From positions 1 through 47,664 of the IMG/VR virus record IMGVR_UViG_3300040733_000024: a DNA stretch of 47,664 bases; one strand, given 5' to 3'. The number at the start of each line of letters is the position of its first letter. The stretch's first letter is position 1. The DNA comes from a virus. Taxonomy: Duplodnaviria; Caudoviricetes. This document shows positions 28,361-47,198 of this stretch, piece after piece. Position numbers and translations under genes: made by a program. The notes below the pieces were generated by a model. The model did not search any database. It saw only the letters and a program-made list of their open reading frames with translations, and had not been told where the DNA came from.

Positions 28361-28537
28361 AATCACCCTGCCCACCAAATTAAAACGCCCCAGGAGCCAT
28401 CCTGGTGCGTCAGTAATTCTGCTTTCTATATAATAGCCTCATCTCAACACCGGAAGCGGAGTCTTTCAGAACTGGAGGCTGGCCCCCTCCAGTCGTAGTC
28501 TTTTCTTTAACGGTAATTCCCAGCGTTACCGTTGCCC

Positions 28538-28813: not shown

Positions 28814-28988
28814 CCTCCGAAGGTTACGAATTTATCGAACGGAAAGAATACTAAGGATCCGATAAAGTTAGCGACTGTCGCGGATAACCATGATGGCCAC
28901 CTCCGCTTATTACCGTAATGTATAACCGGAGCCAGTATTAGAGAAGACAGTTGCCAACGGATAATATAAATAATTAATTCGTGTTCCA

Positions 28989-30185: not shown

Positions 30186-30225
30186 TCCTTCATTTTTTAG
30201 TGTTCGGTTTTAATCCCGACACTTG

Positions 30226-30257
30226 ATAAATAAGCCTGACGGAGCGAAGTTGTTTAA
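30226..30257 (-). promoter_or_regulatory. Phage promoter-like motif, copy 3
   Basis: TTAAACAA-N15-CTTATTTAT upstream of the HNH / MT-A70 genes. Confidence 0.6.
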
Positions 30258-30273
30258 TGAGGTTTACTGGTAA

Positions 30274-31314: not shown

Positions 31315-31328
31315 TAGATAACCTCCTT

Positions 31329-31343
31329 TTTTGCGTTCTTCAT
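31329..31343 (+). repeat. 15-bp direct repeat, left flank of the R-M cassette
   Basis: TTTTGCGTTCTTCAT, identical at 34128-34142. Confidence 0.7.
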
Positions 31344-31516
31344 AATGAAGATGGCGAAATAAAAAAGACGCTAATCAGCGTCTTTCTTTTTCTTTAAAAA
31401 GTTTTTTATCATAACAGTCTGCGTATCACTTCTAACAAAGCAGCAAATAAAATCCTTGACCCTAAGAAACGCCCTAAATAATAAAAAATAATACGGATAT
31501 ACTAATTAAGTTTAAT

Positions 31517-31551
31517 ATGTCACGTATAGTCTGTAGACTAATCGTCTACAT
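31517..31551 (+). promoter_or_regulatory. C-protein operator (C-box pair, 35 bp)
   Basis: ATGTCACGTATAGTCTGTAGACTAATCGTCTACAT matches the architecture of the C.Esp1396I/C.AhdI operators (two GAC-N-GTC dyads around a central GT); ends 18 bp before the C gene. Confidence 0.75.
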
Positions 31552-31569
31552 AAGGATATTTTTCTTGTT

Positions 31570-31800
31570 ATGAATATACAAAAGCAGTTCGGCAAAGCAT
31601 TAAGGGAATGTAGAATACAACGGAATCTCTCCCAAGAGAAACTTGCAGAACTATGTGGGCTTCATCGTACATACATTAGCGATGTAGAACGTGGCGATAG
31701 AAATATTTCATTAGTTAATATCCACAAAATTGCATCAGCTTTACATATTAATATATCTAGTATTTTTAATATATTAGAACAAAATATAAAGGAGCTATGA
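31570..31800 (+). CDS. R-M controller (C) protein, XRE HTH
   Basis: LSQEKLAELCGLHRTYISDVERGDRNISL; directly upstream of the REase gene and behind a C-box. Confidence 0.9.
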   Translation: MNIQKQFGKALRECRIQRNLSQEKLAELCGLHRTYISDVERGDRNISLVNIHKIASALHINISSIFNILEQNIKEL

Positions 31801-31803
31801 ATT

Positions 31804-32640
31804 TTGCAGTTACCACTTGATTTTGGAAATTTAGGTCAACGCATTGTTAATCTACCTAACACCTCAGAAGATAATTACATAAGAATTGTTCAGAATCTTG
31901 AGCAATTGCTTGAAAAACCAAAAGTTAAAAATCGCGAGGCTATTGCTAAAGCATTTCAACTAGCTATAGAACTTTGCCCCCAGGAAAACCCTTCTGATTT
32001 GTGGCATCATGTAATATATCGTAGTTATTTAAAAATTAGGCCAGGAGGTACTAATCCTGAACAAAGTTGGGTACGTTCATCGGGTGATGCTTTTGAGATG
32101 TTTTTAGCTAATAAATATAATCCCCTACTGAAGCAATCTGGGTTACGATTAAGAACTCTCTTTTCTCATAAAGAAAAGGAAAATGCTCTTACTCGCTTAG
32201 AAATAGGAGATGAGATAGGAAGTAGTAAAATAGATCTACTAATCGAAAAAATTGGTATAGCACGAGGTAGGGGTCTCGATGGCTTTGGAGTTTTAGGGGC
32301 TATTCATGCAAAAGTAAGTCTAGCTGAAAGAGTTTCGGATGATGTTCCAACAAGTAGAATATTAATGAGAGAAGGATTTCTTAGTATTCTTGCAACCTTA
32401 GACGTCAAATCCTTCCCACCACCGGCAGGAGATTTAATAAATAAAGGGGAGCTTGGTACACCAGCTAAACCTTCAGATAAACGTTTATATATTGAGAAGC
32501 ATGGAGAATTTAATGCTTGTTTCAGTTTTAATACTCGAAGTGTACCTTCCTTAGAGACAACAGAAAGCGGGAAGCGTATTTACTATGTTGATGTAACAGA
32601 AAATCCTGACAAGTTATTGCAATACTTAATAACAGTATAA
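31804..32640 (+). CDS. Type II restriction endonuclease, AgeI-like (CCGG family; predicted ACCGGT)
   Basis: NPSDLWHHV, QSWVRSSG.AFE, HAKVSLAERVSDD and LDVKSFPPP motifs and a 278-aa length match AgeI as I recall it; PD-(D/E)XK variant. Confidence 0.8.
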   Translation: MQLPLDFGNLGQRIVNLPNTSEDNYIRIVQNLEQLLEKPKVKNREAIAKAFQLAIELCPQENPSDLWHHVIYRSYLKIRPGGTNPEQSWVRSSGDAFEMFLANKYNPLLKQSGLRLRTLFSHKEKENALTRLEIGDEIGSSKIDLLIEKIGIARGRGLDGFGVLGAIHAKVSLAERVSDDVPTSRILMREGFLSILATLDVKSFPPPAGDLINKGELGTPAKPSDKRLYIEKHGEFNACFSFNTRSVPSLETTESGKRIYYVDVTENPDKLLQYLITV

Positions 32641-32645
32641 GAGTA

Positions 32646-33959
32646 TTAATTCTCATGATGTAAAAATTGCAATACAGCCCTTGCAATTCCGGCTGCAAGT
32701 TTTGGAGGGACTGCGTTTCCTATCTGTTTAAATTGGGCAAATTGCGATCCCTCAAAAATGTAAGTATCAGGGAAAGATTGGAGCCTTGCTGCCTCTCGAA
32801 CAGTAATAAAACGATCGACTTCAGGATGTACAAAATCGGAGCAGTCTCTAGCCATATGAGCAACTAGCGTATGAGCCGGTACATCCCAACCCAACCTTCT
32901 ATATTTATTTGCAAAACCTTTAGCATCTATGGTATCTAAAACCTCGTCAATATTTATATGACCCTTTAACAAAATATTCCTAAGTTCTTCTTCTTTTATA
33001 CGGTCTTCAGTCCTGCATCCTTGAACGTCTCTTATTCCATTTCCACCTAACAAATCATTTAATAAGTCTTCCGAAAGTCCATCCTCTAATAAGCGTGATC
33101 TTATTTTTGTCCCATAATCACCAGGTTTCAGCAAAGCTAAACGAAACCTTCTTATTCCTAGCATTTGTTTTGCAGAATGATGAGTTATGTTTTTCGACCC
33201 GTCCCTCATATTAACTTGATAATTACTTAAACAAACACTAGAATTATATGGTAAATGTTGGTGAGTATCTTTTGGAGTTAAAGCTTCATCTGGAAGATCG
33301 CTTATAGCCTCTCTGACTGTCACTGCTGGCATCAATTTTTCACTTAGATTATCCTCAAACAAAGAAAGATTAATAGGTATTTGATCTGAGCCAATAAAAT
33401 GTGTAGCTCTTGGCGTTGGAATATCTTTCCCTTCGGCTGCTCCTAGGATAAATACCCTTTTACGGAACTGAGGAACTCCAAAATTTACTGAATCTAGAAC
33501 ATGAACCTTTACTCCATACCCTAACTTCTCTAATCCCTTCGTTATCTCATTTATGACTTTACCATTTTGCATTGAGAGTATGCCTACAACATTCTCGAAT
33601 ACAAAAGTTTTTGGTCTAAATTCATCTAAAAAGGAAAGATAGTATAAATATAATTTATTTCGAATATCGTTAGGGTCTCTTTTCCCATAAGTTGAAAAAC
33701 CCTGGCAGGGTGGACCTCCTAGTAAGACATCTAGTTGCCCCCTATCAAGTCCTAATTTTTTTCTAATTTCCTCTGGAACTATTTTTTCAACTGAATCTGA
33801 AGATACAATCCCTTCCAAATGGTTGCGAGCAAAAGTTTTTATAGCATTTTTATCAAAGTCATTTGCAAAAAGACATTTAAATCCTTCCGCTCGAAATCCT
33901 TCGGCTAGTCCTCCTGCCCCGGAAAAAAGATCAATCGTAATATGCTTTGTTGAACACAT
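32646..33959 (-). CDS. C5-cytosine DNA methyltransferase, cognate to the REase
   Basis: DLFSGAGG, GGPPCQGFS, FENV, PQFRKR, REAARLQSFPD and QIGNAVPP motifs; convergent with the REase gene. Confidence 0.93.
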   Translation of the reverse strand: MCSTKHITIDLFSGAGGLAEGFRAEGFKCLFANDFDKNAIKTFARNHLEGIVSSDSVEKIVPEEIRKKLGLDRGQLDVLLGGPPCQGFSTYGKRDPNDIRNKLYLYYLSFLDEFRPKTFVFENVVGILSMQNGKVINEITKGLEKLGYGVKVHVLDSVNFGVPQFRKRVFILGAAEGKDIPTPRATHFIGSDQIPINLSLFEDNLSEKLMPAVTVREAISDLPDEALTPKDTHQHLPYNSSVCLSNYQVNMRDGSKNITHHSAKQMLGIRRFRLALLKPGDYGTKIRSRLLEDGLSEDLLNDLLGGNGIRDVQGCRTEDRIKEEELRNILLKGHINIDEVLDTIDAKGFANKYRRLGWDVPAHTLVAHMARDCSDFVHPEVDRFITVREAARLQSFPDTYIFEGSQFAQFKQIGNAVPPKLAAGIARAVLQFLHHEN

Positions 33960-34127
33960 GCTGCTCTATTCTCCCTTAATTCTTAAAAATAAATTAAGAT
34001 ATTTTCTGGCTAGTTAACCTCAACAATTATAACAAAAAACTTGAGTTCAATGTACGGGATATATAGAAAATAATTTTTAAAATTCTCGCAATAAAAACAC
34101 AGAGAATCTAGTTAATGTTACCAGCAA

Positions 34128-34142
34128 TTTTGCGTTCTTCAT
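34128..34142 (+). repeat. 15-bp direct repeat, right flank of the R-M cassette
   Basis: TTTTGCGTTCTTCAT, identical at 31329-31343. Confidence 0.7.
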
Positions 34143-34189
34143 CTTAAAGCTCGTAAATATACGATAATGAAAAAAGACCCCGAAGGGTC

Positions 34190-34873
34190 TTACGCAATTT
34201 TATTTTTAAAATAGGTATCAATCCGCTCGTTAGCCAACTCGACATACTTTATATCCTTTTCGATTCCGATAAAATGACGACCCGTATTTAACGCAGCAAT
34301 CGCAGTCGTCCCGCTTCCCATAAACGGATCGCAGACCGTTTCCCCTTCCCTCGTCACAGATACGATTAGCTGCTCCATGAGGTCGACGGGTTTTTCATTC
34401 GGATGGGTTAGGCTGCTTCCATTTACTCGTTGACTCACTATAACAGACTTCGGTCTTTTATTCGGAAAGGCGAATTTACCTTTAACAGCGAACCAGATAA
34501 CGTCGTGACTGGGAGCGAAAGCCCCCTTGAGGTCGCCCATCCCATACAGAACCCGATCCCATATGACCTGGGACTTAACGTCGAACCCCGCCCACTCGAT
34601 CGCGGACCGGAAAGCCTCCTGTACGTCCCAACGGCAAAAACAGATTAATGCTCCCCCGTCCTTGAGTATCCGGTTAGCGTCGTAAAGCCACCAGATAAAC
34701 GGATGCTGATCGTTTAGGATTTTCGGGAGTTTTTTCGTTCCCTTACGAGCATTAGATTGGTAGTCGATCCCGTAGGGAGGGTCGGTAATTATCGCGTTCA
34801 CACTCTCCGATGGGATACCCCGCATAATGTCTAAGCAGTCCCCTGATACGACCTTGTTAATATACTTTTCCAT
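34190..34873 (-). CDS. Orphan N6-adenine/N4-cytosine DNA methyltransferase (beta class)
   Basis: TDPPY, HPNEKP and DPFMGSGTT motifs. Confidence 0.9.
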   Translation of the reverse strand: MEKYINKVVSGDCLDIMRGIPSESVNAIITDPPYGIDYQSNARKGTKKLPKILNDQHPFIWWLYDANRILKDGGALICFCRWDVQEAFRSAIEWAGFDVKSQVIWDRVLYGMGDLKGAFAPSHDVIWFAVKGKFAFPNKRPKSVIVSQRVNGSSLTHPNEKPVDLMEQLIVSVTREGETVCDPFMGSGTTAIAALNTGRHFIGIEKDIKYVELANERIDTYFKNKIA

Positions 34874-34906
34874 ATGCCCTCCTGTATTTAAACCTTTTTC
34901 TACCCT

Positions 34907-34938
34907 GTAAGTAAGGCTAAAAAGAGGGTTTTGTTTAA
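34907..34938 (-). promoter_or_regulatory. Phage promoter-like motif, copy 4
   Basis: TTAAACAA-N15-CTTACTTAC upstream of the orphan methylase gene. Confidence 0.65.
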
Positions 34939-35022
34939 AACAAAAAAGACGCTTTCGCGTCTTTATCGTAGGTAATTTGTGGTATCCAGTTTTATAGCCA
35001 GAACAGTTCCTTGCCGTCTCCG

Positions 35023-35193
35023 TTACCGGGTTTCTCTTTTATATGAGGTACTACACATTTCTCCGTAACTTTTAGCAATTTTTAAAACCTTTTCTATTGC
35101 TTTTTGTCTTTCATCGGTTGTCTTCGACAGTTCTATTTCTTTTAATACAAGTTCGAACTCTTTAGCAATTTCTTCTTTCCCTTCATTATCCAT
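35023..35193 (-). CDS. Small charged helical protein, 56 aa (not in the ORF track)
   Basis: MDNEGKEEIAKEFELVLKEIELSK...; AAGGGGGG RBS; upstream extended -10 TGGTATAAT. Confidence 0.55.
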   Translation of the reverse strand: MDNEGKEEIAKEFELVLKEIELSKTTDERQKAIEKVLKIAKSYGEMCSTSYKRETR

Positions 35194-35316
35194 CGATTAA
35201 CCCCCCTTAACCCAAACCTTTCAAATTATACCATAAAAGGAGGATAGAAGTAAAACTATTTTATCTACCGTGATATTTTCTCAACAATTCGTTTGCTTTA
35301 AACTTCGGGAAAAGAA

Positions 35317-35345
35317 GTATAAAGTGTAAATTGCAGGTAAAAATA
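35317..35345 (+). promoter_or_regulatory. Possible forespore sigmaF/G-type promoter
   Basis: GTATA-N14-GGTAAAAATA resembles the B. subtilis sigmaF consensus. Confidence 0.35.
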
Positions 35346-35376
35346 ATTAAAGACACTTACTGTTAGGGGGTTCACT

Positions 35377-35916
35377 ATGATTAACCAAATTATTTTATGG
35401 TCAATGTTCATCGTTCCTTGGCTTACTTTGTTTTTTATGAAAAAAGAAGACATCAAACGCTATATCCCCGCTGCTCTATTCTCCATAGTAATATCTACAA
35501 TAGTTATTGATGCAGGTGTCAGGTTTGGATTCTGGGTTATTCGTGAAACAGTTTTTCCTCTTTATGAGATGACGCCATTCCTTTTTGGTTTATATCCGGT
35601 TGCAACAATGTGGATTCTAAAGTTCACCACTGGTAATTTCTTAATTTATATGGTTACTAACGCAATCGTGGATTTAGTCTTTGCTTACTTTTTCCTGGAA
35701 TACCTTTTTGTTGTTAGGGGTATGGTTATTGTTCAAATTACCGGCTTTCAGGATTGGTTATTAACCCTAGGACGAGCGGTAATAATATATATCTACCAGA
35801 AGTGGCAGGAAGGCGAACCTTTACGATTGAGGACTTTTAGCTTAAACCCACAACAAGCAGCTGCCAAATTACTTGAAAAAGACAAAGCCGATGAAAATAA
35901 CAATAATAGAGATTAA
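35377..35916 (+). CDS. Multi-TM membrane protein, CBO0543-like; moron
   Basis: IVPWLTLFFMKKEDIKRYIPAALF...YIYQKWQE; about 5 TM helices; opposite strand and AT-rich. Confidence 0.65.
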   Translation: MINQIILWSMFIVPWLTLFFMKKEDIKRYIPAALFSIVISTIVIDAGVRFGFWVIRETVFPLYEMTPFLFGLYPVATMWILKFTTGNFLIYMVTNAIVDLVFAYFFLEYLFVVRGMVIVQITGFQDWLLTLGRAVIIYIYQKWQEGEPLRLRTFSLNPQQAAAKLLEKDKADENNNNRD

Positions 35917-35942
35917 TCATCAACCTTATAGAATGTAGTTAA

Positions 35943-36992
35943 TTATCTCCAGCTTAATTCTTCGACCGCCCTCTCTAGATCTCCGTTCCCTGGAATGGTA
36001 TAGCGAGTTACCATCGCGAGGTTCGGCGATCCGTCCCGTTTCATATGGCCCATTAGCCTCGCTATAACATCCAGGGGAACTTTACGAACAGCCAGCTCGT
36101 GTCCGAACGTATGTCGCAGGACGTGGGGAGTAACGGTAATACCTGTAATTCTCTCGTATTTCTCGAACATAAACTGGACCCCCCTGGTCGTCATTTTGTC
36201 CGACCGTTGAGTCGTGAACAAGTAGGCTGCTCCGTTCGATTGGCTGTCGATCCCTTCGACCTCCCGGCTCTTTTGGTAGTCTTCGATCGCCTTCCGAGCG
36301 TCAAGGTTTAACGGTACTGTCCGATATTTACCCCCTTTACCGCTTTGGATAACGATGGACCCCTTCCTTTCGAATAGGTTAACGTCCATTATACGAAGGT
36401 CGCAGAGTTCCTGGACCCTGATCCCGGTATGCAGCAGCAGGGTTATTATCGTTAGTTCCCGTTGGTTCCCGTGTTTACGGACAGCCCGGATCAGGCTGTT
36501 CTGTTCGTTACGTTCGAGCCACTTCGGAGCCTCCTGCTGAACGGTAACAGGGGAGATGTTTGTACAGGGATTATCCGGGATAATTCCCCGGCTTACGAGC
36601 CATTTAAAGAAGACGGATAACTGAATCAGGTTTAACTGAACGGTCCGGGGTTTATAGTTTTGACTCGCCCACCGCTTGAAGTTAGCGATGTCAAGCTGGG
36701 TCGCGTGAATTATCGTGTCCGGGTCCACTCTGGATGGTTCCGGGGATTCACGGTCGGCTTCCGGGATTGTCGAGGGGGTTTCGCTGGAGCTTCGCTGACC
36801 CGTCCCGTTTTTAAAATTTTTTCTGTATTTTTCAGGACCGTTCTGCCGCCCCCCGAACCCCCCGGTCCCCCGTCCGTACCCCCCTCCGAGAATCAGCCAT
36901 CTCTCGAACTTTTCCAGGCTCGATCGGTACTGCCTCACGGTCGCGTCGGTCTTTCCTTCGTTTACGAGGTTCTCTAAGAATGCTTTGATCAT
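35943..36992 (-). CDS. Tyrosine recombinase (XerC/D-like) with an in-frame low-complexity insertion
   Basis: TGIRVQEL (R), GKGGK (K), HVLRHTF (HxxR), MGH and catalytic Tyr in TRYT; Gly/Ser/Pro-rich insert near residues 34-90. Confidence 0.88.
   Translation of the reverse strand: MIKAFLENLVNEGKTDATVRQYRSSLEKFERWLILGGGYGRGTGGFGGRQNGPEKYRKNFKNGTGQRSSSETPSTIPEADRESPEPSRVDPDTIIHATQLDIANFKRWASQNYKPRTVQLNLIQLSVFFKWLVSRGIIPDNPCTNISPVTVQQEAPKWLERNEQNSLIRAVRKHGNQRELTIITLLLHTGIRVQELCDLRIMDVNLFERKGSIVIQSGKGGKYRTVPLNLDARKAIEDYQKSREVEGIDSQSNGAAYLFTTQRSDKMTTRGVQFMFEKYERITGITVTPHVLRHTFGHELAVRKVPLDVIARLMGHMKRDGSPNLAMVTRYTIPGNGDLERAVEELSWR
36849..36884 (-). other. Canonical G-quadruplex-forming tract
   Basis: Minus strand GGGGGG-TACGGAC-GGGGG-ACC-GGGGGG-TTC-GGGGGG. 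Confidence 0.6.
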
Positions 36993-37012
36993 GGTAGCAG
37001 AGTCCCCCTCTC

Positions 37013-37092
37013 ATATATGATGTGTATTTAATGGGATAATGGGTCATTTAATACGGTTTCCTGGTCCTATTATACCCTAACACATCATATAT
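37013..37092. repeat. Perfect 13-bp inverted repeat pair overlapping the recombinase promoter
   Basis: ATATATGATGTGT (37013-37025) and ACACATCATATAT (37080-37092); minus-strand TTGTAA-N17-TATAAT promoter at 37069-37097. Confidence 0.65.
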
Positions 37093-37115
37093 TACAACAG
37101 AGACAGATGAGTTAA

Positions 37116-37580
37116 TTACTCCTCATCCCTTTCATACTCGGCCATCTTATCCAGTTCCTTCTGTATCTCGTCGATCTCTGCTTCGATGTCTTCCTGGGTC
37201 CGCTTGTCTTCGAGGGTAGCGTCGACCTTCATTACTTCGTTTAACTTGCCCCTATTCTTTAAAGCGAGTTCGAGAGCCTTTAGTTTGTTCGTGTCGGTTC
37301 TCGCCCCACGAGCCAGCTTACGCAGCATATCGTAAGCCTCCGATAAAAAGTCATCCATAGCCTGATCAGCGATAGCGTTCTTATACGCTATAAAGTCGTC
37401 GTTCCTTTTCCAGCGGTATATCGTGACAGTAGAGACCCCGACCTTCTTCGCGATCTGTTCTATGGTCATTTGGTACACATCCGGGAGAGCTAGTAACTCA
37501 GCAGCCCTACGCTGGGACTCGGTTAGTTTTCGACCCAGGCTCTCTAGTCGGCGGGCCTCGCGACCATTATATGTCTTCAT
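37116..37580 (-). CDS. HTH protein, probable terminase small subunit (phBC6A51-like HTH)
   Basis: LTESQRRAAELL...TIEQIAKKVGVSTVTIYRWK...KALELALK; no other terS candidate next to terL. Confidence 0.65.
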   Translation of the reverse strand: MKTYNGREARRLESLGRKLTESQRRAAELLALPDVYQMTIEQIAKKVGVSTVTIYRWKRNDDFIAYKNAIADQAMDDFLSEAYDMLRKLARGARTDTNKLKALELALKNRGKLNEVMKVDATLEDKRTQEDIEAEIDEIQKELDKMAEYERDEE

Positions 37581-37867
37581 CTTAAAACCTCCTTTAATCG
37601 TAAATCCACCGTAAGCCTTACGGCTCTAGGATTCAAGATACATCCCTAAAGCCTCTGAAAATGTGTTAGAACCCCGAAAATCAGCCACTAAAACGGTAAT
37701 AAAAAGGGGTCATTCTTAACGAAATCCCCCTGTTTTCCCCCTACTTTTACCAATCTTTTCAGACCCCCCGGCGACGGAATGTTTCCCATTTCCGGGGATA
37801 GAATTATAGTAAGTTCTAACGGCAACAGTATGAATACATCTTTATATTATTAGTAAGTATAGTTATT

Positions 37868-38030
37868 AGGGTTATAGTTAGTGTGAGGTTTCTCTAACAT
37901 ATACGTGTGAGGGTTTCCTCACTATTAGCCCTTAACGTGTTAGACTTTCCTCACTATATACGTTAGACTTTCCTCACTATATCCCGTCGACCGCATAAAC
38001 ACCGAATTCTATATGTTAGACTTTCCTCAC
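37868..38030. repeat. Second iteron array: five GTKAG-N6-CTMAC palindromes, homologous to the origin in the rep gene
   Basis: Sites at 37883, 37907, 37939, 37962 and 38015; 37868-37922 aligns with 5701-5755 with few mismatches. Confidence 0.8.
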
Positions 38031-38071
38031 TATTACCCCGTCGACTTTCGACAGTCGCCCTGGTCCGTGTT

Positions 38072-41000
38072 TTATACTACATTCACCGTAACGCTGGCCT
38101 TAATAATCTCTACGTTTTTCGTCGGGTCAGGTAGTCCCTCGGCAGTCAACGGCTGTAAACTTACCGTAAACTGTACTACCTGAGAATAACCCGCGACCTC
38201 CGGGGTCAGCAGAATAAAAACCTTTTTACCGTCAACCGTGGCCCCTCCGGTAGAATAAGTAGTCGCCCCGTCTGAACTCTTATAGGTATAGGTCGCGGAG
38301 GCCACCTCGAAATTCGTCCCGTCCGTGGAACTAAATTCGATCCCTACCTCCTTACTTTCACCCAGACTAAAAGTTTTCATTTCGATCCCATCCTCCACAT
38401 AATTATAGTTAAATTCAAGTTCCACGGCAGCGAACCCATCGTCCGTTTCCGAAACTACATAATGATCGTTAATCTCGCTGACCTCGAACCGTTCGTCAAT
38501 CTCGCTAATTTCGTATCTGTCATCAATCTCGCTGACGTTGTAGTCCGGGGAATGTTTACGGACGTTCCTTAAAATTGCCCGCAGGGTATCGAAAAGACCT
38601 TGGAACCTGATCCGGGTCTTCCGTAGAGTATCAGCTATAACAGTTACCGTCGCCTGTAATTGTCTTTCCGTATCAGCCTTAACCTCGGTTGTAACCTGGA
38701 CTCCGCGAACGGTATCGGCTTTCGGGTTAACCGTAACGACCACTCTACGAAGGGTATCTACCGCGAAAACTGTACTCCCGGTAGTTGACATCCGTCTCAG
38801 GGTATCCGCTGCAAAAGTCAGGGTCTTACGTAAATTCCGCAGGGTATCAACCTTCACCGTTTCGACCCTGTTAACCTTCCGAATCGTGTCGGCCTGTAAC
38901 ATCGCCCTTACTGTCACCCTTCGTAAAGTATCAGCTTTAAACATGATACCGGCCCTTAACTTTCTAACCGTGTCAGCCTTTACCATAACCGTGATAAGAA
39001 GTTTTCGAAGGGTATCGGCCTTAAATATAAGCCCCCGGATAACTTTCCGGTAAGTATCGACCTTCACGGTCTCGACCCGGACGATCTTCCGGTAAGTGTC
39101 CGCTACCACAGCGACATTTTTCCGTAGTTTCCGTAGAGTGTCCGCTACCAGGGTCTCAGCCCGTAAGACCTTTCGGAACGTGTCCGCTGCTACAGCGACA
39201 TTATTCTGTAACCGACGTAAAGTATCGGCCTTTACCGTTTCTACCCTGGTCAGCTTACGGAAGGTATCAGCCTGGACAGTTTCCTCTCGCTGGACTTTAC
39301 GGAGGGTATCGGCCTGGATGGTCTCTGACCGGATCAGGTTACGGATGGTATCGGCCCTAAAGGTTATCGTATTTGACCGGATAACGACCCGGAGAGTATC
39401 GCCCCCGAAAGTTACCGTCCTGGTCAGTTTACGGTAAGTGTCAGCTGCCAGGTTCAGGTTAACCCGTATGTTTCGAGCCGTGTCCCCCTGGAAGGTTATT
39501 GTCTTCCTTACGTTCCTTATCGTATCTCCCGCGAAGGTCAAGTTCTTTCGTAGCTTCCGAACCGTGTCCGCTGTCAGGATTAAGTTAACCCGGACTTTAC
39601 GAACAGTATCAGCCTTAACAGTATTCGTGGCCCGGAGTTTCCTTACTGTGTCAGTCTTAACCGTTTCACCCCGGCGAACCTTACGGAAGGTATCCCCCTT
39701 AATCGCTTCAACCCGGAGAACTTTTCGGAACGTGTCTCCCTTTATGGTCTCGATCCTTCGAACGACCCGGAGGCTGTCAGCCTGGAGGGTTACGTTTCGG
39801 CGAAGTTTCCTTATCGTGTCCGCTAAAAAGTTTACCGTCCTCCGTAGCTTTCGTAGCGTGTCACCCTTTACCGTTTCCTGCCTCTGAACTTTTCGAAAGG
39901 TATCAGCCTTTAATGTCGGGACAGCCTTTCGCAGTTTACGAAGGGTATCGGCTTTAAAAGTATTAGTCCCAGATAATTGTCTTACCGTATCACCTTTAAC
40001 CGTATACGTGGCCTGGAGTGAACGAACGGTATCAGCCGAAAAACTGACCGGAGTCGTCGGAGTATGTGGGGTACATTCGATCACATTAGACGTAGTACCC
40101 ATACAGATATTTCCTGCTGCCATCATAACGTCAACGACTATGAAGCAGTAATTTGTCCCGTTAACGAGACCTGTAATTATTTTCGAAGTATCGGCATAGT
40201 CTGAAGTTTCGACGTAGGTATTATTACCTTTAACCGTAGCAGCGGAAAGACCCGTCCCTGCCATATAATAAACCCTGTGTTTATCCCCGGAGATCAGACC
40301 CCCGGAGTTCGTCCAGTTAACCGTTACCTGAGTATCTCCAGCGGTTGCGGTATTCTGGGTTAAGGTCGGGTAAGTTGTGAAGTCCAGTTTAGGTTTATTC
40401 GCAGCAGTAGAACCATGCATCAGCATAGCAGTATTGAATCCGCTGGCCTCGGATACCCACTTCTGATAGAAAGCTACCCAGCTTCCCAGTTTCATCGCAA
40501 CATCGGCTCGAACGTCTTTAGCGATATACTGGTTAATAGTAGACCCGTAGTTACCTACCATTCTTACTACAGTAGCAGTCCAGTCGACTGTATCTAAAGT
40601 AAGCCAGTCTGATATTTGATACAGAGCTATTGTCTGAGAACCCGCTGCTGTCGGATAAACAGAAAAAGTCCCAGTTCCGATTGTAACCCCAGTATAGGTC
40701 GACAGATCAAATCTGTAGTAAGACCTATAGTAGTTAGTACCATCAGAACCGGCTCTAAAAGGGTTCGAGCCGCCACCATAAACGTATTTAGTTCCAGTAC
40801 CTATATTACTACCTAAATAACCACTCGTAGTTGATGTTGTGTATATGGTCGGGTCGATAATGATCGGGTAAGCTGCTTCCTGGCTGTCCTTATAGGAGAT
40901 ACCGTAAAGGTAATCGCCAGTATCAGAGTATTGGTCGAAGGTCTCCAGAGGTTTTTCGTTAAAGTCATTGGCCTGGACAGCCCCGACCCAGATCGTTTCC

Positions 41001-41605
41001 TGGCCCGTGGCATCCAGGAAAGCCAGCCTTTCAGACTTTCGGGTTCCGTTATTGGATTCGAATTTTACTCCGATCGCGATCCTGGTCGTAGCGGGCTTAT
41101 ACCCCAGCGAAGCGGGATCGGGGAGGGTCTGTTTAAATTCTGGATGAAGGGTTATATTTTCTTTAAGTTCTGTCTCCAGGGAGATGAACTCCAGATCTAC
41201 CCCCTGAAATATACCAGGGTAGGTAATGGTATTACCAGAGACTACCCCGACAGCAGCAGTCGGCGAAGCTATGAGATGTTGATTACCGGAGTCGTAAAGA
41301 TATAAGCCTGTCAGGGTTATACTGACAGCCCCGCCCTGGCCTCGTTGATTTGTAAACCGGATGAACTGCTTATCGTTCGCTAAACTTTTAAACCCGACCG
41401 AGAATTCGTTAGCTTTCGTTACATAGTCATAAATTTTAGGTAAGGACTTCGTATTCTCGATAATGGAGGTATCTATGTCCTGCCAGTCGCCTTTTTCATC
41501 CTGGTAATGGACAGGAGAAATAAAGAGGGAGACGGTCTGTGTTCCGTCTCCGTTATCTACGACTTTCTGGAATTTATCCCGCTTATCTAGAACCTCGGTT
41601 TTCAT
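38072..41605 (-). CDS. 1177-aa multidomain protein: DNRLRE/WapA-like N-terminal region, FN3-like domain, 35 basic 14-aa repeats, acidic repeats, Ig-like C-terminus
   Basis: PVHYQDEKGDWQDID...YPIIIDPT; RSYYRFDLS...KPKL; ITGLVNGTNYCF; (A/G)DTxR(K/R)(L/V) repeated 35 times. Confidence 0.8.
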   Translation of the reverse strand: MKTEVLDKRDKFQKVVDNGDGTQTVSLFISPVHYQDEKGDWQDIDTSIIENTKSLPKIYDYVTKANEFSVGFKSLANDKQFIRFTNQRGQGGAVSITLTGLYLYDSGNQHLIASPTAAVGVVSGNTITYPGIFQGVDLEFISLETELKENITLHPEFKQTLPDPASLGYKPATTRIAIGVKFESNNGTRKSERLAFLDATGQETIWVGAVQANDFNEKPLETFDQYSDTGDYLYGISYKDSQEAAYPIIIDPTIYTTSTTSGYLGSNIGTGTKYVYGGGSNPFRAGSDGTNYYRSYYRFDLSTYTGVTIGTGTFSVYPTAAGSQTIALYQISDWLTLDTVDWTATVVRMVGNYGSTINQYIAKDVRADVAMKLGSWVAFYQKWVSEASGFNTAMLMHGSTAANKPKLDFTTYPTLTQNTATAGDTQVTVNWTNSGGLISGDKHRVYYMAGTGLSAATVKGNNTYVETSDYADTSKIITGLVNGTNYCFIVVDVMMAAGNICMGTTSNVIECTPHTPTTPVSFSADTVRSLQATYTVKGDTVRQLSGTNTFKADTLRKLRKAVPTLKADTFRKVQRQETVKGDTLRKLRRTVNFLADTIRKLRRNVTLQADSLRVVRRIETIKGDTFRKVLRVEAIKGDTFRKVRRGETVKTDTVRKLRATNTVKADTVRKVRVNLILTADTVRKLRKNLTFAGDTIRNVRKTITFQGDTARNIRVNLNLAADTYRKLTRTVTFGGDTLRVVIRSNTITFRADTIRNLIRSETIQADTLRKVQREETVQADTFRKLTRVETVKADTLRRLQNNVAVAADTFRKVLRAETLVADTLRKLRKNVAVVADTYRKIVRVETVKVDTYRKVIRGLIFKADTLRKLLITVMVKADTVRKLRAGIMFKADTLRRVTVRAMLQADTIRKVNRVETVKVDTLRNLRKTLTFAADTLRRMSTTGSTVFAVDTLRRVVVTVNPKADTVRGVQVTTEVKADTERQLQATVTVIADTLRKTRIRFQGLFDTLRAILRNVRKHSPDYNVSEIDDRYEISEIDERFEVSEINDHYVVSETDDGFAAVELEFNYNYVEDGIEMKTFSLGESKEVGIEFSSTDGTNFEVASATYTYKSSDGATTYSTGGATVDGKKVFILLTPEVAGYSQVVQFTVSLQPLTAEGLPDPTKNVEIIKASVTVNVV
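38575..40045 (-). repeat. Degenerate 42-nt coding tandem repeat (35 units)
   Basis: Counted 35 D(T/S)xR cores at a 14-aa period, with occasional 15-16-aa units. Confidence 0.85.
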
Positions 41606-41751
41606 AAGCTACACCCCTCTACAGGGTCATAGTAGATACATTTCCAGGCATACCCCAGAAGGTCTCCTGTTTCAGAGTATATCGCCTCGAAACAGCCACA
41701 GCCGACCTCCCGTTCGAAGGGACACTCTGGCCTTAAAGGAAGGTACGGCAT
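41602..41751 (-). CDS. Small Cys-rich protein, 49 aa (not in the ORF track)
   Basis: MPYLPLRPECPFEREVGCGCFEAIYSETGDLLGYAWKCIYYDPVEGCSL; GGAGGTG RBS; its TGA overlaps the ATG of the large gene (ATGA). Confidence 0.6.
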   Translation of the reverse strand: MPYLPLRPECPFEREVGCGCFEAIYSETGDLLGYAWKCIYYDPVEGCSL

Positions 41752-41763
41752 ATTTTACACCTC

Positions 41764-42189
41764 CTAGAAAGCCTCGATAGTTGCGGTTACTTCCAGGTCT
41801 ACGGAGTTGTCATTCGACGGCCCCTCGTCAGAACTCGAAGAACATTTCGCCCAGAACAGGGTATTAGTATTACCGATCACACTAGAGATCGTCAGGGTCG
41901 CCCCGGCTGCTCCATAAGTTCCAGCAGATCCCGCATTGTCGGGAGCCAGTTGCCATTTTGCAGCGGTAGTCCCGGTAATAGCGATCGTGGTATCTCCGAC
42001 AGTCCGGTTATTTGCGTTTAGGCAGCGGATGGCTAGTTTAATGTCGCTTGATACCTCGTTATTGGTAGCGTTCAAAGTTGCTGAAATGGAAGTCGCTGCA
42101 TCGTTCGTCGGGTCTTCGGAAACACGGGTTCCGTCCGATCCACCGGAGGTAACGGAACCTTTGTAAATTCCCATATAAGCATTAGCCAT
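41764..42189 (-). CDS. Hypothetical Ser/Thr/Gly-rich beta protein, probably structural
   Basis: AGGAGG RBS; composition typical of virion proteins; first gene of the repeat-protein operon. Confidence 0.6.
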   Translation of the reverse strand: MANAYMGIYKGSVTSGGSDGTRVSEDPTNDAATSISATLNATNNEVSSDIKLAIRCLNANNRTVGDTTIAITGTTAAKWQLAPDNAGSAGTYGAAGATLTISSVIGNTNTLFWAKCSSSSDEGPSNDNSVDLEVTATIEAF

Positions 42190-42331
42190 TTACAAAAAGC
42201 CTCCTAAAAATTGAATTAGGGAGAAATTACTCCCCTCATTTAAAGGGGTAGGAAATGGTTAACTATACAAGCTGTTTGTAGACGCGAAAACAAAAAAAAC
42301 TGGCCTTTTACAGCCAGTTCAAGTTTTTAAC

Positions 42332-42556
42332 TTACCTCTTCTTTATGTCTTCGTCTATTCGGGTATTTGCACACTCCAGGCATAGGAACTGTGGATTATG
42401 GATGTCATTCTCGACCCAGGTTTTATTTTCACGGTCCCAGTAAAACACCGGATGGACTATTATTACTTCCGGTCCTTTCGAGGTCTCCGGGGATTCTATG
42501 GCCCCACATTCTCTGCATACTCTTTTCATTTTGTTACTCCTTCCTATTATAGCCAT
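42332..42556 (-). CDS. Small zinc-binding protein
   Basis: CREC...CLEC. Confidence 0.5.
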   Translation of the reverse strand: MAIIGRSNKMKRVCRECGAIESPETSKGPEVIIVHPVFYWDRENKTWVENDIHNPQFLCLECANTRIDEDIKKR

Positions 42557-42801
42557 TTTGCCCTTCGGACGGTTTTTCCGTTAAGTACGTTAACCAGTTG
42601 GCAGCCGTCTTCGTATATACATAAGGCTCTGCTAAAATGCTCTCGGTCCGTGTATAATGCGTACTCATAATCCGAAAACGTGTAAGCCTTTATTCTGGTC
42701 GGGATTCCCCGGTCCGCGAAGTATTTTACTATTTTATTTATCTGTGTTTTATTTTTGATAGCCATAATTTGAAAGCTCATTTCATCGTTATCGCTTTTCA
42801 A
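42547..42801 (-). CDS. Hypothetical protein
   Basis: Overlap-coupled with its neighbours on the same strand. Confidence 0.5.
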   Translation of the reverse strand: MKSDNDEMSFQIMAIKNKTQINKIVKYFADRGIPTRIKAYTFSDYEYALYTDREHFSRALCIYEDGCQLVNVLNGKTVRRAKWL

Positions 42802-43039
42802 TTTTTGACCCCTCCATACCTTGATTCCATATTTCTGCTTTTAATATTTTCAGGATATAGCGTCTAAGGCTACGTAGCTTTTCGTGTTTTACCCCCTCCC
42901 CTTCCCAGCCGAGATAAACTTCGGAGGTACTCGCTTCATCGTCGTCAAGATATAAAAGACTGTTTTCAAGTTCGTAATAAGCGTCGCTGACTTTTTCGAT
43001 GTCCATTAGGATTTTGTTTAACCCTTCTAATTTTGCCAT
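42788..43039 (-). CDS. Hypothetical protein
   Basis: AAAGGGG RBS; first gene of a small operon. Confidence 0.55.
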   Translation of the reverse strand: MAKLEGLNKILMDIEKVSDAYYELENSLLYLDDDEASTSEVYLGWEGEGVKHEKLRSLRRYILKILKAEIWNQGMEGSKIEKR

Positions 43040-43077
43040 TAATGCTGGCCCCTTTCTCTCATTTATGTAATTACTAT

Positions 43078-43155
43078 ATTACGTATTACAGTAACTAGCA
43101 AGCATGAATTACGCATTACAGTAATTTGTTCCTTTGCTATTACGACATTACGCGA
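43078..43155 (+). promoter_or_regulatory. Operator cluster in a divergent intergenic region
   Basis: ATTACGYATTACAGTAA direct repeats at 43078 and 43108, plus TATTACGACATTACGCGA at 43138 (inverted copy of the 21838/28342/44261 motif). Confidence 0.6.
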
Positions 43156-43370
43156 CCTCCATTTTAAACCGAAAAGAATAAACGAAATACCGGGACTGGC
43201 CTAAGCCAGTTACTTTCTTTTTGTCCCTTTCAGACACGAAAACGACACTTTCGCACATAAGGATTACCCCTGTTGAGCGTCAAAATGACCCTTTCACGCA
43301 TAAGGGGTAGATAATAAAACGCATCTCTGCTAAATTAGCGGAGTAAGTTCATTCGAAAGGAGCGGGTATC

Positions 43371-43661
43371 TTGGAAAAGAAGGAAAGGGTTATAACTAAG
43401 AGACAGTTAACCGAAGCTCTCCAGAACTGCTCCGGGGTAACTGAGGCAGCGTCCATAGTCGGATGTAAAAGAAAGAGGTTTTACGATTTAGTAACCTTTC
43501 ATAATTTAGAGATACCGGACGCATGGTCTGGATGGAGTCCAGTACCAAAAGACGATCCCGATTTATATAAACCCGCTAAAGACGCAATGGATATTAAAGG
43601 AACCCTTCTAAAGTCGATGGGGTATGACCTGGAAGGGGAATTATACGCGAGTTCATTTTAA
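43371..43661 (+). CDS. Small HTH (Fis-like) DNA-binding protein
   Basis: LTEALQNCSGVTEAASIVGCKRKRFY; AAGGAG RBS. Confidence 0.55.
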   Translation: MEKKERVITKRQLTEALQNCSGVTEAASIVGCKRKRFYDLVTFHNLEIPDAWSGWSPVPKDDPDLYKPAKDAMDIKGTLLKSMGYDLEGELYASSF

Positions 43662-43672
43662 TACCTTCGCAT

Positions 43673-43711
43673 AAAAAAAGAACCGTAGAGCGGGAAGCCC
43701 TACGGTTTTTC
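43673..43711. terminator. Bidirectional rho-independent terminator
   Basis: A-run, AACCGTAG...CTACGGTT stem and T-run between convergent genes. Confidence 0.75.
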
Positions 43712-43726
43712 TGAACTTATATCGGG

Positions 43727-44131
43727 TTAATAAACCCCTAGCGTACTTATCCATTTAAAACTTTGGATTTCGTCTGGCCCGTAAAATGAGTCATAGTAAC
43801 GACTCACTCCTAACCCCGGCTCTATGGGATCAGATAGGATAAATGTCTGGTCGGATACTTCGTCTCCGTTTTTCGTAACTAAGATTATTTTAACTTTACC
43901 GACAAAAGGGATCGTTCCCTGATTTCTTATATCGAAAAAATACCGAGTAGTCGATTCATTAACAGCCTTTTTATTAACAGCTTTAACTACTATATTTTTA
44001 GGGTCGAAAGACGGGTCCGTTTGGGTCTGGGCAGTTTGTTTACCTTCTGATACTGACTGATCGATTAAGGAACCGATGGCAGCTAATCCGACTAGTAAAA
44101 CGATAACACCGATAACTAATTTTTTTAACAT
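43727..44131 (-). CDS. Membrane-anchored / exported protein next to the integrase (possible superinfection exclusion)
   Basis: N-terminal TM helix; Ig-like IRNQGT...KNGDEV...IEPG domain; divergent from the integrase gene. Confidence 0.55.
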   Translation of the reverse strand: MLKKLVIGVIVLLVGLAAIGSLIDQSVSEGKQTAQTQTDPSFDPKNIVVKAVNKKAVNESTTRYFFDIRNQGTIPFVGKVKIILVTKNGDEVSDQTFILSDPIEPGLGVSRYYDSFYGPDEIQSFKWISTLGVY

Positions 44132-44260
44132 AAAACCTCTCCCCTTATTTTTATAATATAGGTAGACCCTACCTTTCCCCCCTTTTTATGTATTTGCTAG
44201 ATGTCATCTTATGATTCCGTATAATTACATTCAAGAGGTAAAATACGGCAGTATATATAT

Positions 44261-44313
44261 TTACGTAATATCGTAATATCCCCCTTGATTCCTTTGGTCT
44301 TAGTATATATAAT
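44261..44313 (+). promoter_or_regulatory. sigmaA promoter of the integrase with an adjacent operator copy
   Basis: TTGATT (44285-44290), 17-nt spacer, TATAAT (44308-44313); TTACGTAATATCGTAATA at 44261-44278. Confidence 0.65.
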
Positions 44314-44346
44314 TAGCTCATACCAAAATTTTCAGGAGGGTCACTC

Positions 44347-45945
44347 ATGGGTTACAAAGGCGAAAAATACGACATCGAATCTATAATCGGATACCTGAGA
44401 CGTTCCCGGCAGGACTTGGAAAGAGAGCGGAGAACTGGCGAGGATACCCTGGCGACCCAGCGGAAAATCATAAATAAAGTCTTAGACGATTTTGGTATCC
44501 CCTACGATATAGTCGAGGAAATAGGCTCCGGGGATAAAATCGATACCCGGCCCGTTTTCCAGCAAGTTCTCAGATATTTAGAGGAAGGTAAATATAACTC
44601 TGTAGCGGTTAAAGAGGTTGCCCGTCTCGGTCGGGGTAACTATGGGGATATGGGTCGGGTATACGACATTATCATAAATAAAAAGGTTTATGTCGTAACC
44701 CCCTATAAAATTTATGACCCCCAGAACCCCGCTGACCTCCAGCAGATCAGATTCCAGTTATTTTTCGCCCGTGAGGAATACGAGTCGATCCGGGAGAGAA
44801 TGTTATCCTCGAAGCTAAGTTTAGCCTCAGAGGGTCGTTGGGTCGTCGGAGCCACTCCTTACGGGTATATGCTGGACAGGAGAACGACCCGCCTCGTAAT
44901 AGTCCCGGAGGAAGCCGAAGTTGTCAAGTTGATATTCGACTTATACGTCGACGGTCTGGGACAGCCTGACGGCTCATTTAAAGACGTGGCTTTTAAAGCC
45001 ATAGCGACCTACCTTAACACCTTAAACATACCGACCCCCAGGAAAGCCCCGAACGGTTGGACTTACCTCTCAGTACAGCGGATAATAGATAATGTCGCTT
45101 ATATCGGTACTTTCCAGTATAGAACCAGGAAGCGGGTCGGTAATAAATATTACGATCGCCCTGAGTCCGAATGGATAGTCGTCGAGGAAGCTCACGACCC
45201 TATTATCGGTAAGGAACTTTTCGACGCTGCCCAGGAAAGAAGAAAAAGTCGCCACATCCCCAGGACGAAATTAGACTTCTCCCCCTGTGAACTTGCTGGA
45301 CTGGTCGTCTGTAGTCGCTGTGGCAAAAGGATGGTTCGCCAGTACAGTATTCAGCATTACCATAAGAAAGACGGAGGGGAAAGCGTTTATCATAAGGAGT
45401 TTTTGTGGTGTACTAATAACGGCTGCACTTTTGTAAAATATCGGGACGTAGAAGAAGACATTTTAGAGACCCTGGTTAACTTGGGTAAAGCGGACGTTAA
45501 CCAATTAAGGGAATTATATAAACAGAGCATCCTCTCTGGCTTAAAGGCTAACGGGAACGATAAAAATAATCTCCAGGAGACCGCAGACAAAAAGCGGAGA
45601 GAAATAAAAAGGAAAATGGAATTCCTCTTAGAAAAGTATATGGACGGTATCGTCGACGACGACCAGTATAAATCGAAGAACTCCCAGCTTAAAAAGGAAC
45701 TCGACGAGATTAATTCCCTGGTCCCTGACCAGGATAACCTGGAAGTCGTCGATACCCCTAAAATAAATAAGGCGATCCTCGAATTCATAAATAAAGTTAA
45801 CGAAGTCTTAACCGTTTATAAAGCCTCAAAAAATAAGACCGTAAAAAATGAGTTACTGTCCTCGGTTATCGATCATGTAATTTTAACAAAAACAGGAAAA
45901 GGAACTTATGAACTGGACGCAAAGACGAAGATCGGTCTCAGATAG
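44347..45945 (+). CDS. Large serine recombinase (phage integrase, SpoIVCA-like architecture)
   Basis: YLRRS catalytic Ser, RLGR, TPYGY, recombinase domain, LAGLVVCSRCG zinc ribbon and coiled coil; 532 aa. Confidence 0.93.
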   Translation: MGYKGEKYDIESIIGYLRRSRQDLERERRTGEDTLATQRKIINKVLDDFGIPYDIVEEIGSGDKIDTRPVFQQVLRYLEEGKYNSVAVKEVARLGRGNYGDMGRVYDIIINKKVYVVTPYKIYDPQNPADLQQIRFQLFFAREEYESIRERMLSSKLSLASEGRWVVGATPYGYMLDRRTTRLVIVPEEAEVVKLIFDLYVDGLGQPDGSFKDVAFKAIATYLNTLNIPTPRKAPNGWTYLSVQRIIDNVAYIGTFQYRTRKRVGNKYYDRPESEWIVVEEAHDPIIGKELFDAAQERRKSRHIPRTKLDFSPCELAGLVVCSRCGKRMVRQYSIQHYHKKDGGESVYHKEFLWCTNNGCTFVKYRDVEEDILETLVNLGKADVNQLRELYKQSILSGLKANGNDKNNLQETADKKRREIKRKMEFLLEKYMDGIVDDDQYKSKNSQLKKELDEINSLVPDQDNLEVVDTPKINKAILEFINKVNEVLTVYKASKNKTVKNELLSSVIDHVILTKTGKGTYELDAKTKIGLR

Positions 45946-45954
45946 AGCAAGCGG

Positions 45955-45976
45955 AAGCCCCGTATTTACGGGGTTT
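45955..45976 (+). terminator. Hairpin after the integrase (terminator and/or part of the attP arm)
   Basis: AAGCCCCGTA-TT-TACGGGGTTT followed by T-rich sequence. Confidence 0.55.
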
Positions 45977-45989
45977 AATTTTTGGTTTT

Positions 45990-46005
45990 ATCATTAAGCA
46001 ATCAT
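45990..46005. other. Prophage-host junction (att site) inside prkA
   Basis: PrkA similarity ends at ...GAG ATG ATT G. An imperfect dyad ATCATT-AAGC-AATCAT spans the break. The exact crossover is not resolvable from this window. Confidence 0.7.
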
Positions 46006-46869
46006 CTCGTCCGCATAAATCAGCGCGAAGCGGCCGGCCTTGAAGTTGCCTTCCTGAGAGAGGCTGAGCAGGTTCCAGAGGAACTTTTCATCACACTTCA
46101 GCATCTCCTGGAATTCCATCATGCCCCTGTTGGCGATGTTCAGTTCCCCGTCAAAACGGTAGGCGCGGGGGTCAGACTCGGACCCGTATTCGGTAATGGT
46201 GGAAAAATCCATACTGCCGGTAAGGTCGGCGATGTCCTGTGACTTTGGGTCCGATGGGGTGAAAGTGCCTACGCCGACCCGGTTATCTTCGGATAAGAAA
46301 ACTCTCTCCACCGGCACTTTTTCTATATTCCCGCCGTACTCCACATCAACCATCATCCGGCAGGAGGGACAAAGCTCCCCTTCAATATAAACATTGTAAA
46401 GTTTTTGGAACTCCTCCCGTAATTCTCTGGGAATCAGGTGCAGGGGTTCCTCGTGCATGGGGCAGCCCTTGATCCCGTAAAAAGCTCCCTCATCAGTTCT
46501 GCTGTACTTTTCCAGGCCCTTTTTAAGCATTGCCACCAGGGTTGATTTACCCCCGCTTACCGGCCCCATCAACAGCAAGATCCTCTTACGCACGTCGAGA
46601 CGGCGGGCAGCCGGGTGAAAGTATTCCTCAACTAACTTCTCCAGGGTTTTTTCCAGGCCGAATAACTCGGAAGAAAAGAAATGATACTGCTTCAACGTGT
46701 CTTTCTCTTCAACCCCGGCACACTTGATCATATTATAAATCCTGGCGTGGGCAAGTTGGCAGACATAGGGCCTTCCACTGACAATCTCAAGGTAATCCTT
46801 GAAAGATCCTTCCCAGGCAAGCTGCTTTTCCAGGGAACGATATTCTTCTATAAGCCTCAGGAAATCCAT
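45994..46869 (-). pseudogene. prkA: 5' half of the host PrkA/YeaG-family AAA+ sporulation protein gene, interrupted by the prophage
   Basis: HPAARRLDVRKRILLLMGPVSGGKST, DFSTITEYGSESDPRAYRFDGELN and QEGNFKAGRFALI motifs; stops at 291 aa, whereas Bacillus PrkA is about 630 aa. Confidence 0.9.
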
Positions 46870-47198
46870 GGTTTCACTCCTTCTCTATAGTTTCAAAACC
46901 TACCGGCTTCCACTCAGGCGGTGAACACATCAAAACGAATACTACATTATATGCGAAACTGGCAAAAAGAAGAATGTGAGCTACCCGCAAGAGCACCCGG
47001 ATAACAAATATTGTCGATTTGCAATAAAAAAGCATTATGATTATGAGGAATTAGTTTGCGTCCCCTTACCACTTATATAAGGTATTAAAAGCAAATAAAA
47101 AAGGCCACAAAAAATTCCCATCCAGATTCAAAACCACCTATTTTCCCAATGCAGTCGTTTAACTGCAACCAGTAGACTCGCCCTTTTTTAGAGAATAA

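Follow-up and report, generated by a model that had tools for sequence, protein, structure and literature searches.

Why does a conserved sporulation gene, prkA, break off beside the large serine integrase gene of a prophage, and what would become of it when its host sporulates? The question is raised by the viral record IMGVR_UViG_3300040733_000024 (Duplodnaviria; Caudoviricetes), whose 47,664 nucleotides (nt) were analysed as a whole and are called the window below. A sequence-only reading had noticed that prkA stops there next to a convergent large serine integrase gene without visible decay, and had proposed a developmental switch of the skin type. Its description of the locus holds: the stop codons of the integrase and of the converging prkA 5′ piece are 48 bp apart, and the break is, on its sequence, an attachment (att) site and not a product of decay. 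We think it fairly likely that the SPbeta-type phage inserted in prkA excises precisely in the sporulating mother cell and so rebuilds the gene. The attL site, an intact integrase and phage modules are the parts directly seen in the window, and it is by sequence comparison with relatives that reversible in-frame insertion, conserved gene halves and a cognate small gene are known. The argument starts from the following features.

45994..46869, minus strand: host prkA 5′ piece of 291 codons, ending ALIYADEMIA and a stop; codons 1-288 are host-derived
46009..46032, minus strand: B arm of attL, host prkA codons ~280-287
46007..46008, minus strand: crossover dinucleotide GA, the centre of attL and the first two bases of the Glu288 codon, placed by alignment of 17 ends
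45979..46006, minus strand: P′ arm of attL, with its outer motif at +21 and the best matrix score in the window
44347..45945, plus strand: large serine integrase of the SprA (SPbeta YokA) family, 532 amino acids (aa), by domain search and solved-structure match
1..46006, no strand assigned: prophage body, left end missing, recognised from open reading frames (ORFs) of phage modules

The GA register is identical in all 17 attL ends and all six attR ends at this site (site 288), and in relatives GA is the centre of the attP inverted repeats. When the window was scanned at 95,272 positions with a P′-arm matrix built from the 16 other site-288 elements, the 28 nt after GA gave the top score, 19.8 bits; the second-best position had 17.0, and host B′ arms ranged from -4 to -16. 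The outer motif lies at +21 in 17/17 P′ arms vs +17 in 6/6 B′ arms, and such a 4-bp shift has been described as unusual for SPbeta (PMC11722253). It is the presence of a site-specific P′ arm in exact register that identifies the break as an att site. The insertion interrupts the prkA frame and supplies no replacement sequence; the stop codon of the 5′ piece belongs to the element, lying in the P′ arm after M-I-A, three codons past the crossover. The PF08298 match of the 5′ piece runs from position 2 to 277 of 358, and the break therefore falls inside the AAA+ domain.

The integrase is intact, with catalytic Ser20 and zinc-ribbon Cys322/325/355/360 all present; SPbeta SprA is its only solved relative at E<1e-5 (E 7e-125), and on a tree of such integrases it groups with those of site 288. 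Among viral contigs, a search with the single integrase sequence found no relative and an alignment-based search found 10. On the host side, the nearest full-length PrkA (P0001, 631 aa) is 97% identical to the 5′ piece, and the closest full-length relatives continue past the break as ADEMIVAHTNE, not as the ADELIVAHTNE given in the sequence-only reading. The nearest named PrkA proteins come from Pelotomaculum and Desulfotomaculaceae (87-88% identity), so that the host is probably, by this likeness, a Pelotomaculum-like clostridial spore-former. A sigmaE/K-like -10 element had also been pointed out near the locus; it is present, as one further feature line records.

46946..46953, minus strand: CATATAAT, sigmaE/K-like -10 box of the host prkA promoter, recognised from conservation upstream of prkA

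This box is, judging from its conservation, part of the host prkA promoter and no phage feature: it is exact in 30/53 upstream regions of prkA in relatives (31/54 counting the window), and a CATA-N3-T box occurs in 46/54, the window included. In B. subtilis prkA is sigmaE-dependent, and the related hosts tested encode sigmaK (5/5 match, 3 over the cut-off) and SpoIIID (4/5). Further upstream of prkA, 47259-47549 encodes the C-terminal WCX domain of a WYL-type regulator; this region differs in contigs of relatives, which suggests a host deletion remnant.

Would removal of the element restore the gene? The sequence-only reading had expected the prkA 3′ half at the far left end of the window, where it cannot lie: the record, linear and estimated to be 59% complete, ends inside the phage replication region, and attR, the 3′ half and any far-end gene would all lie beyond it. 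In-silico excision does restore the frame in relatives. At 27/27 two-ended junctions both ends share one crossover dinucleotide and rejoining them gives a peptide like that of intact PrkA, ends on different contigs being assumed to belong together; a later sample added three of three, and nine of all 30 are at site 288. Since the codon register was set by alignment, the informative observations are the common dinucleotide, the fact that no codon is lost or doubled, and an inverted repeat with its centre there, which at site 288 has 15-19 of 24 matches in the first set and 12-16 in the later one. Three viral contigs (L033-L035), two of them holding the window's closest integrases, have a predicted attP between a convergent integrase and a small ORF (17-20 of 24). 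Two further loci (L142, L144) show integrase, attP and small ORF in convergent array and, judged by eye, represent the un-integrated form.

The relatives come from a survey of 162 genomes in the order to which Desulfofundulus thermosubterraneus belongs; prkA was matched in 149 of them. The 43 genomes with partial or multiple matches were re-searched and flanks were read in 39; contig ends, N gaps and frameshifts were not counted as splits (G018, G030, G034, G052, G070, G085, G125, G132, G140), and G080 and G119 were left out of the split count. Most genomes of the order have prkA intact, and att-type prkA ends are found in 30/149, at codon ~140, 254, 288 or 466, with seven of the 30 split at two or three sites. 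All seven genomes with a close relative of the window integrase have prkA in pieces only. A second intact copy of prkA, named beforehand as evidence that would speak against a switch, is carried by one split genome; the other 29 of 30 have no full-length second prkA. A fifth site, near codon 505, is known from viral records, which also point to hosts with a Bacillales-like PrkA. Two of these records (L054, L055) hold prkA pieces spanning codons 138-288 and represent two-site splits in hosts of that kind. In a sample of the phylum, prkA was found in 57/151 genomes, with five new splits at 288 and one further at 254 only.

Four of the five recurring sites resolve, on integrase sequence, as separate integrase clades. 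In a quick tree built from 49 integrases, a well-supported branch sets apart each of the sites 254, 466 and 505. The 17 rows of site 288 are all united by a single branch (support 100), which also includes the three attP contigs and four rows without an assigned site; for site 140 there is one assigned row. Site-288 elements occur in both orientations to prkA (L007, L097, L106 and L138 vs the window, L005 and L102), though the GA core is not palindromic.

Split genes in these genomes show no decay: the host-derived codons contain a stop in none of the split genomes with att ends. A comparison of the ratio of nonsynonymous to synonymous substitution (dN/dS) in both halves, suggested by the sequence-only reading and carried out in relatives, gave low values throughout (0.00-0.06; Nei-Gojobori): in three close site-288 carriers the 5′ half has 0.03-0.06 and the 3′ half 0.00-0.02, and intact pairs have 0.01-0.04. 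Both prkA halves are, on these substitution patterns, under purifying selection in relatives. Where two breaks leave a middle piece of 34 codons, this piece differs from its nearest relatives by 0-3 amino-acid changes. In 4/16 pairs the synonymous divergence (dS) of the integrase approximates that of the host without saturation (0.29/0.33, 0.65/0.66, 0.79/0.90, 0.43/0.32), a co-divergence that suggests long residence under continued selection. These four pairs are all at sites 254 or 466, so the selection argument is stronger there than at site 288.

For a partner of the integrase in excision, relatives have a candidate. At the non-integrase end of 5/5 site-288 elements examined there is an ORF of 50-70 aa that reads into the att arm, and a small ORF lies at the attR end of five of five further elements. 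A profile of the small ORF matched 7/162 genomes, all among the eight site-288 carriers, the eighth having no assembled far end; as the profile included library proteins resembling these ORFs, position and not detection is the independent result. No Pfam family match and no sequence match to SprB were found for it. Its predicted model is a beta-hairpin plus helix, for which Foldseek gave no match at E<=0.001; SprB ranked 11 of 25 weak rows and was alone among them in reaching Z>=2 (Z 2.2, root-mean-square deviation 4.9, 45 aligned). Folded with the integrase of one carrier (G007), the small ORF gave a predicted complex scoring 0.76 vs 0.01 for the best control, a mark reached by 116/157 solved pairs and 2/215 mismatched pairs. 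At least 88% of contacts agree between runs, the partner has a predicted local distance difference test (pLDDT) value of 77 or more, and the contacts are made beside the coiled coil; SprB is reported to bind SprA at the coiled-coil base (PMC11722253). By position, co-occurrence and predicted binding, the small ORF is thus a candidate cognate recombination directionality factor (RDF). Elements at other sites have conserved small ORFs of their own just upstream of the integrase, divergent and ~36-76 aa at site 254 (L060, L063, L067, L072, L074, L098), on the same strand and ~95-107 aa at site 466 (L066, L068, L069, L085, L087, L095), and these are candidate RDFs of two further families.

A promoter of the mother-cell type had been predicted for such a gene, and the candidate in relatives usually does stand behind a box of this kind. 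GGACA-N10/11-CATA lies upstream of the small ORF in 7/7 elements of the order, which represent about four independent lineages, the motif having been picked post hoc. The relaxed form GACA-N10/11-CATA fits 4/5 later elements (one read by eye), with a background of 0.005 per 130 nt and an occurrence of 0/54 in prkA promoters. By its letters, CATA looks like the -10 box of a sigmaE/K promoter. The upstream GACA word may be read as a SpoIIID site, by an analogy to CD1234 of C. difficile that is unconfirmed in host sigK promoters; the consensus used for this reading is that of B. subtilis, and the one of C. difficile (PMC5025042) fits only in part. For the integrase itself the window offers a promoter match.

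44285..44313, plus strand: sigmaA-like promoter match (10/12) upstream of the integrase, best of 7 matches, where shuffles give 5.7

Constitutive expression of the integrase, as for sprA and CD1231, would agree with this match, which is suggestive only.

Taken together, these elements would work as follows. A temperate phage with an SPbeta-type integrase is inserted at the GA of prkA codon 288, where it interrupts the AAA+ domain. The integrase would be made constitutively, and a mother-cell promoter would turn on the small RDF gene, which here would sit in the missing left end of the phage. Precise excision, in the mother cell only, would then rejoin prkA in frame and also relink the downstream gene yhbH (DUF444) to the prkA promoter; yhbH adjoins the prkA 3′ half in 14/20 loci checked. 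The spore would retain the prophage, because the rearrangement is confined to the doomed mother cell. A mother-cell gene would in this way be a cheap home for an element, and a host-evolved timer would not be required.

Several results weigh against excision in the mother cell, and three of them (the empty alleles, the mobile cassettes and the free-phage contigs lacking the motif) favour the best-surviving alternative, ordinary lysogeny, in which prkA is knocked out by a recent insertion, excision follows DNA damage only, and the host tolerates the loss or sporulates poorly. Contigs from 4/4 runs track the window's prkA to 46001 and then run into normal prkA 3′ sequence, the long ones ~95% alike; empty alleles thus exist in close relatives of the host, and the insertion in the window may be recent. 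Site-288 cassettes move horizontally: of the pairs at this site, one was transferred recently (dS of 0.024 for the integrase vs 0.41 for the host), two are intermediate, one is near saturation and one is saturated. Over all 16 pairs, integrase dS is about half that of the host or less in three besides the transferred one, and four are saturated. Given the transferred and saturated pairs, the low dN/dS need not date from the split state. The promoter evidence also has gaps, since the strict GGACA-N10/11-CATA failed in 5/5 later elements, the motif is in 0/3 free-phage contigs, two of them with the window's closest integrases, and 0/5 host sigK upstream regions have it at the same spacing, a similar word lying further upstream. 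No homologue of the small ORF was found within the window, which represents ~59% of the element, so that the predicted RDF gene was recovered in relatives and not here. Moreover, as a similar SprA-SprB complex has already been solved, the complex score may show likeness only. Ordinary lysogeny nevertheless fits poorly with about one in five genomes split, seven of them at several sites and without decay, with host-integrase co-divergence in several pairs, and with tiny non-phage elements that retain integrase and small gene. PrkA, moreover, is reported to be necessary for B. anthracis sporulation (PMC13001217). We regard ordinary lysogeny as unlikely, and keep excision in the mother cell as the preferred explanation.

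A further possibility is that the split has been domesticated by the host as a timer, the delay of PrkA until the excision or excisions being of benefit and occupancy positively selected. The high prevalence, the multiply split genes and the phage-free mini-elements speak for such a timer, as does the report that sigK expression drops on PrkA loss in B. anthracis (PMC13001217). Against it, prkA is intact in the majority of the order's genomes, carriers and non-carriers are intermixed (the G007 3′ half has a dS of 0.12 to an intact genome but of 0.46-0.47 to other carriers), and element maintenance alone accounts for the pattern (PMC6957869). We therefore rate the timer as rather improbable; it would add to excision in the mother cell and not replace it, so the likelihoods given to the several readings are not shares of one whole.

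Could PrkA function without any excision, the 5′ and 3′ pieces being two proteins that reassemble, with a restart of the 3′ piece at Met289? This codon follows the crossover in 5/6 site-288 attR ends, and a TATAAT-like word is present in several P arms. One genome, however, has Leu at 289, the restart codons show at most 3 bases of ribosome-binding match, and the TATAAT word belongs to the att inverted repeat. Three genomes would require a separate 34-codon middle peptide, and the conservation of these pieces, together with the poor ribosome-binding matches, argues against separately made fragments; breaks at five positions, moreover, would all need to be tolerated as split proteins. This reading appears very improbable. 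That the locus is an assembly chimera, or a chance adjacency of a truncated gene and an integrase, is hardly credible, for while the record is a single fragment whose phage part was listed in none of the public runs (RNA runs included, which has no bearing on expression), the P′ arm at the junction is site-specific and in exact register, a match that effectively refutes it, and the integrase belongs to a clade found at the same codon in 16 other elements.

Which known system does a phage that excises from prkA resemble most? The comparison with skin stands in so far as a serine-integrase element occupies a sporulation gene, but the closest model is SPbeta in spsM of B. subtilis (SprA/SprB; PMC4191935, PMC11722253), likewise a phage inside a sporulation gene. 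SprA is a direct relative of the window integrase (E 7e-125), whose att arms share the 4-bp attP/attB motif shift (PMC11722253); in relatives there is a small gene at the opposite end, with predicted contact at the coiled-coil base where SprB binds (PMC11722253). The differences are the target, prkA, in a clostridial host, and a candidate RDF that has no detectable sequence similarity to SprB and a weak fold likeness; furthermore, excision is here a prediction. Phage phi3T in kamA (PMC6957869) occupies a sigmaE-type gene, as the window phage probably does, with a different integrase clade and target. Skin in sigK of B. subtilis and C. difficile (CD1231/CD1234; PMC5025042) resembles the window element in the suggested sigmaA-like recombinase promoter, and relatives of that element in a small gene, there a candidate RDF, behind a sigmaE/K-like box and a possible regulator site (PMC5025042); it differs in its target, sigK and not prkA, and in having a defective virion module where the window has an apparently full one. 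The non-phage elements gin in gerE (PMC5595907), vfbin and vrin carry an integrase and a small factor and resemble the 3-17 kb prkA elements without recognisable phage genes, unlike the window element, which is a phage. Gene rebuilding by excision in a terminal cell is also known from the nifD, fdxN and hupL elements of Anabaena heterocysts (PMC4191935, PMC6957869); in contrast, one gene here carries up to three independent elements per genome.

Exchange of site-specific recombination (SSR) units between elements has been described (PMC6957869), and the prkA cassette is likewise found on phages, on elements resembling integrative and conjugative elements (ICE-like; G002 and G007), on 4.3-kb and 17-kb elements without recognisable phage genes, and on mini-elements of 3.3-4.5 kb that retain the integrase gene and the small ORF and have no recognisable phage genes.

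Whether prkA is new as a target is doubtful. The sequence-only reading took it to be undescribed, which is probably wrong: prkA is reportedly among the regulated-gene-integrity candidates of Mageeney et al. 2020. By term search prkA is unmentioned in the main texts of PMC4191935, PMC5595907, PMC10111431, PMC10083194, PMC12884075 and bioRxiv 2022.02.25.481979, and PrkA is absent from the searched supplement files of PMC10083194. A literature search for prkA as a prophage or integrase target found nothing; the likeliest source, Mageeney et al. 2020, lay outside its reach, so this blank does not show novelty. What may be new is most likely to be found in the prevalence of splits at several sites, in the triple split and in the RDF family.

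Gene reconstitution of the SPbeta and skin type would thereby extend to a clostridial AAA+ gene conserved in sporulation, in an arrangement that is common in the order surveyed (30/149 genomes), and the annotated prkA pseudogenes of these genomes are probably functional. It is conceivable, if on balance slightly doubtful, that among these sulfate-reducing and syntrophic spore-formers prkA is the sporulation gene colonised most heavily, several unrelated integrase clades having taken its five codons, and that multiple splits form a multi-lock AND gate of 2-3 excisions, each with its own mother-cell-induced RDF. The question can be tested in cultured strains, of which Desulfofundulus thermosubterraneus DSM 16057 carries one element, at site 288, and Desulfocucumis palustris NAW-5 three. 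In the latter (G003; L003, L069, L070) prkA lies in four pieces, broken at 254, 288 and 466, with an extra 34-137 fragment; one sigK-family match of this genome is confined to positions 7-145, so that sigK, too, may be split. The predicted set of integrase, RDF and att sites, which belongs to a sister clade of SprA and has another target, should also be useful for specificity studies and recombinase tools.

The remainder of the window is a phage in which virion, lysis and replisome ORFs are uninterrupted in the available part. They include terminase small and large subunits, portal, major head, neck, tail, tape measure, holin and amidase, and for replication an initiator, DnaC, DnaB and a primase. 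One feature lies between the integrase and the prkA 5′ piece.

45955..45976, plus strand: hairpin of terminator-like form in the gap between these two convergent genes, by consensus match only, such sites being no commoner than in shuffles

The small-terminase gene terS (37580-37116) is separated by 8.8 kb from terL (28281-26578), which is downstream of it. The interval encodes a tyrosine recombinase and a restriction-modification-like set made up of a helix-turn-helix regulator, a BsaWI-like nuclease and a cytosine methylase; a further two methylases, an HNH nuclease and a protein of C1-peptidase/SPOR type are also encoded there. A nested element was considered for this interval, and a search for a flanking direct repeat found none. 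Two ORFs apart from the structural module, 38072-41605 (1177 aa) and 41764-42189 (141 aa), match unknown-function PHROG families only. Upstream of terS, at 37902-38038, a 29-nt direct repeat occurs four times and may provide packaging or regulator sites. The phage also encodes a LytTR response regulator and a YkwD/CAP-domain protein (3-554 and 6464-7339), and a LytTR regulator is likewise present in the ICE-like element of G002.

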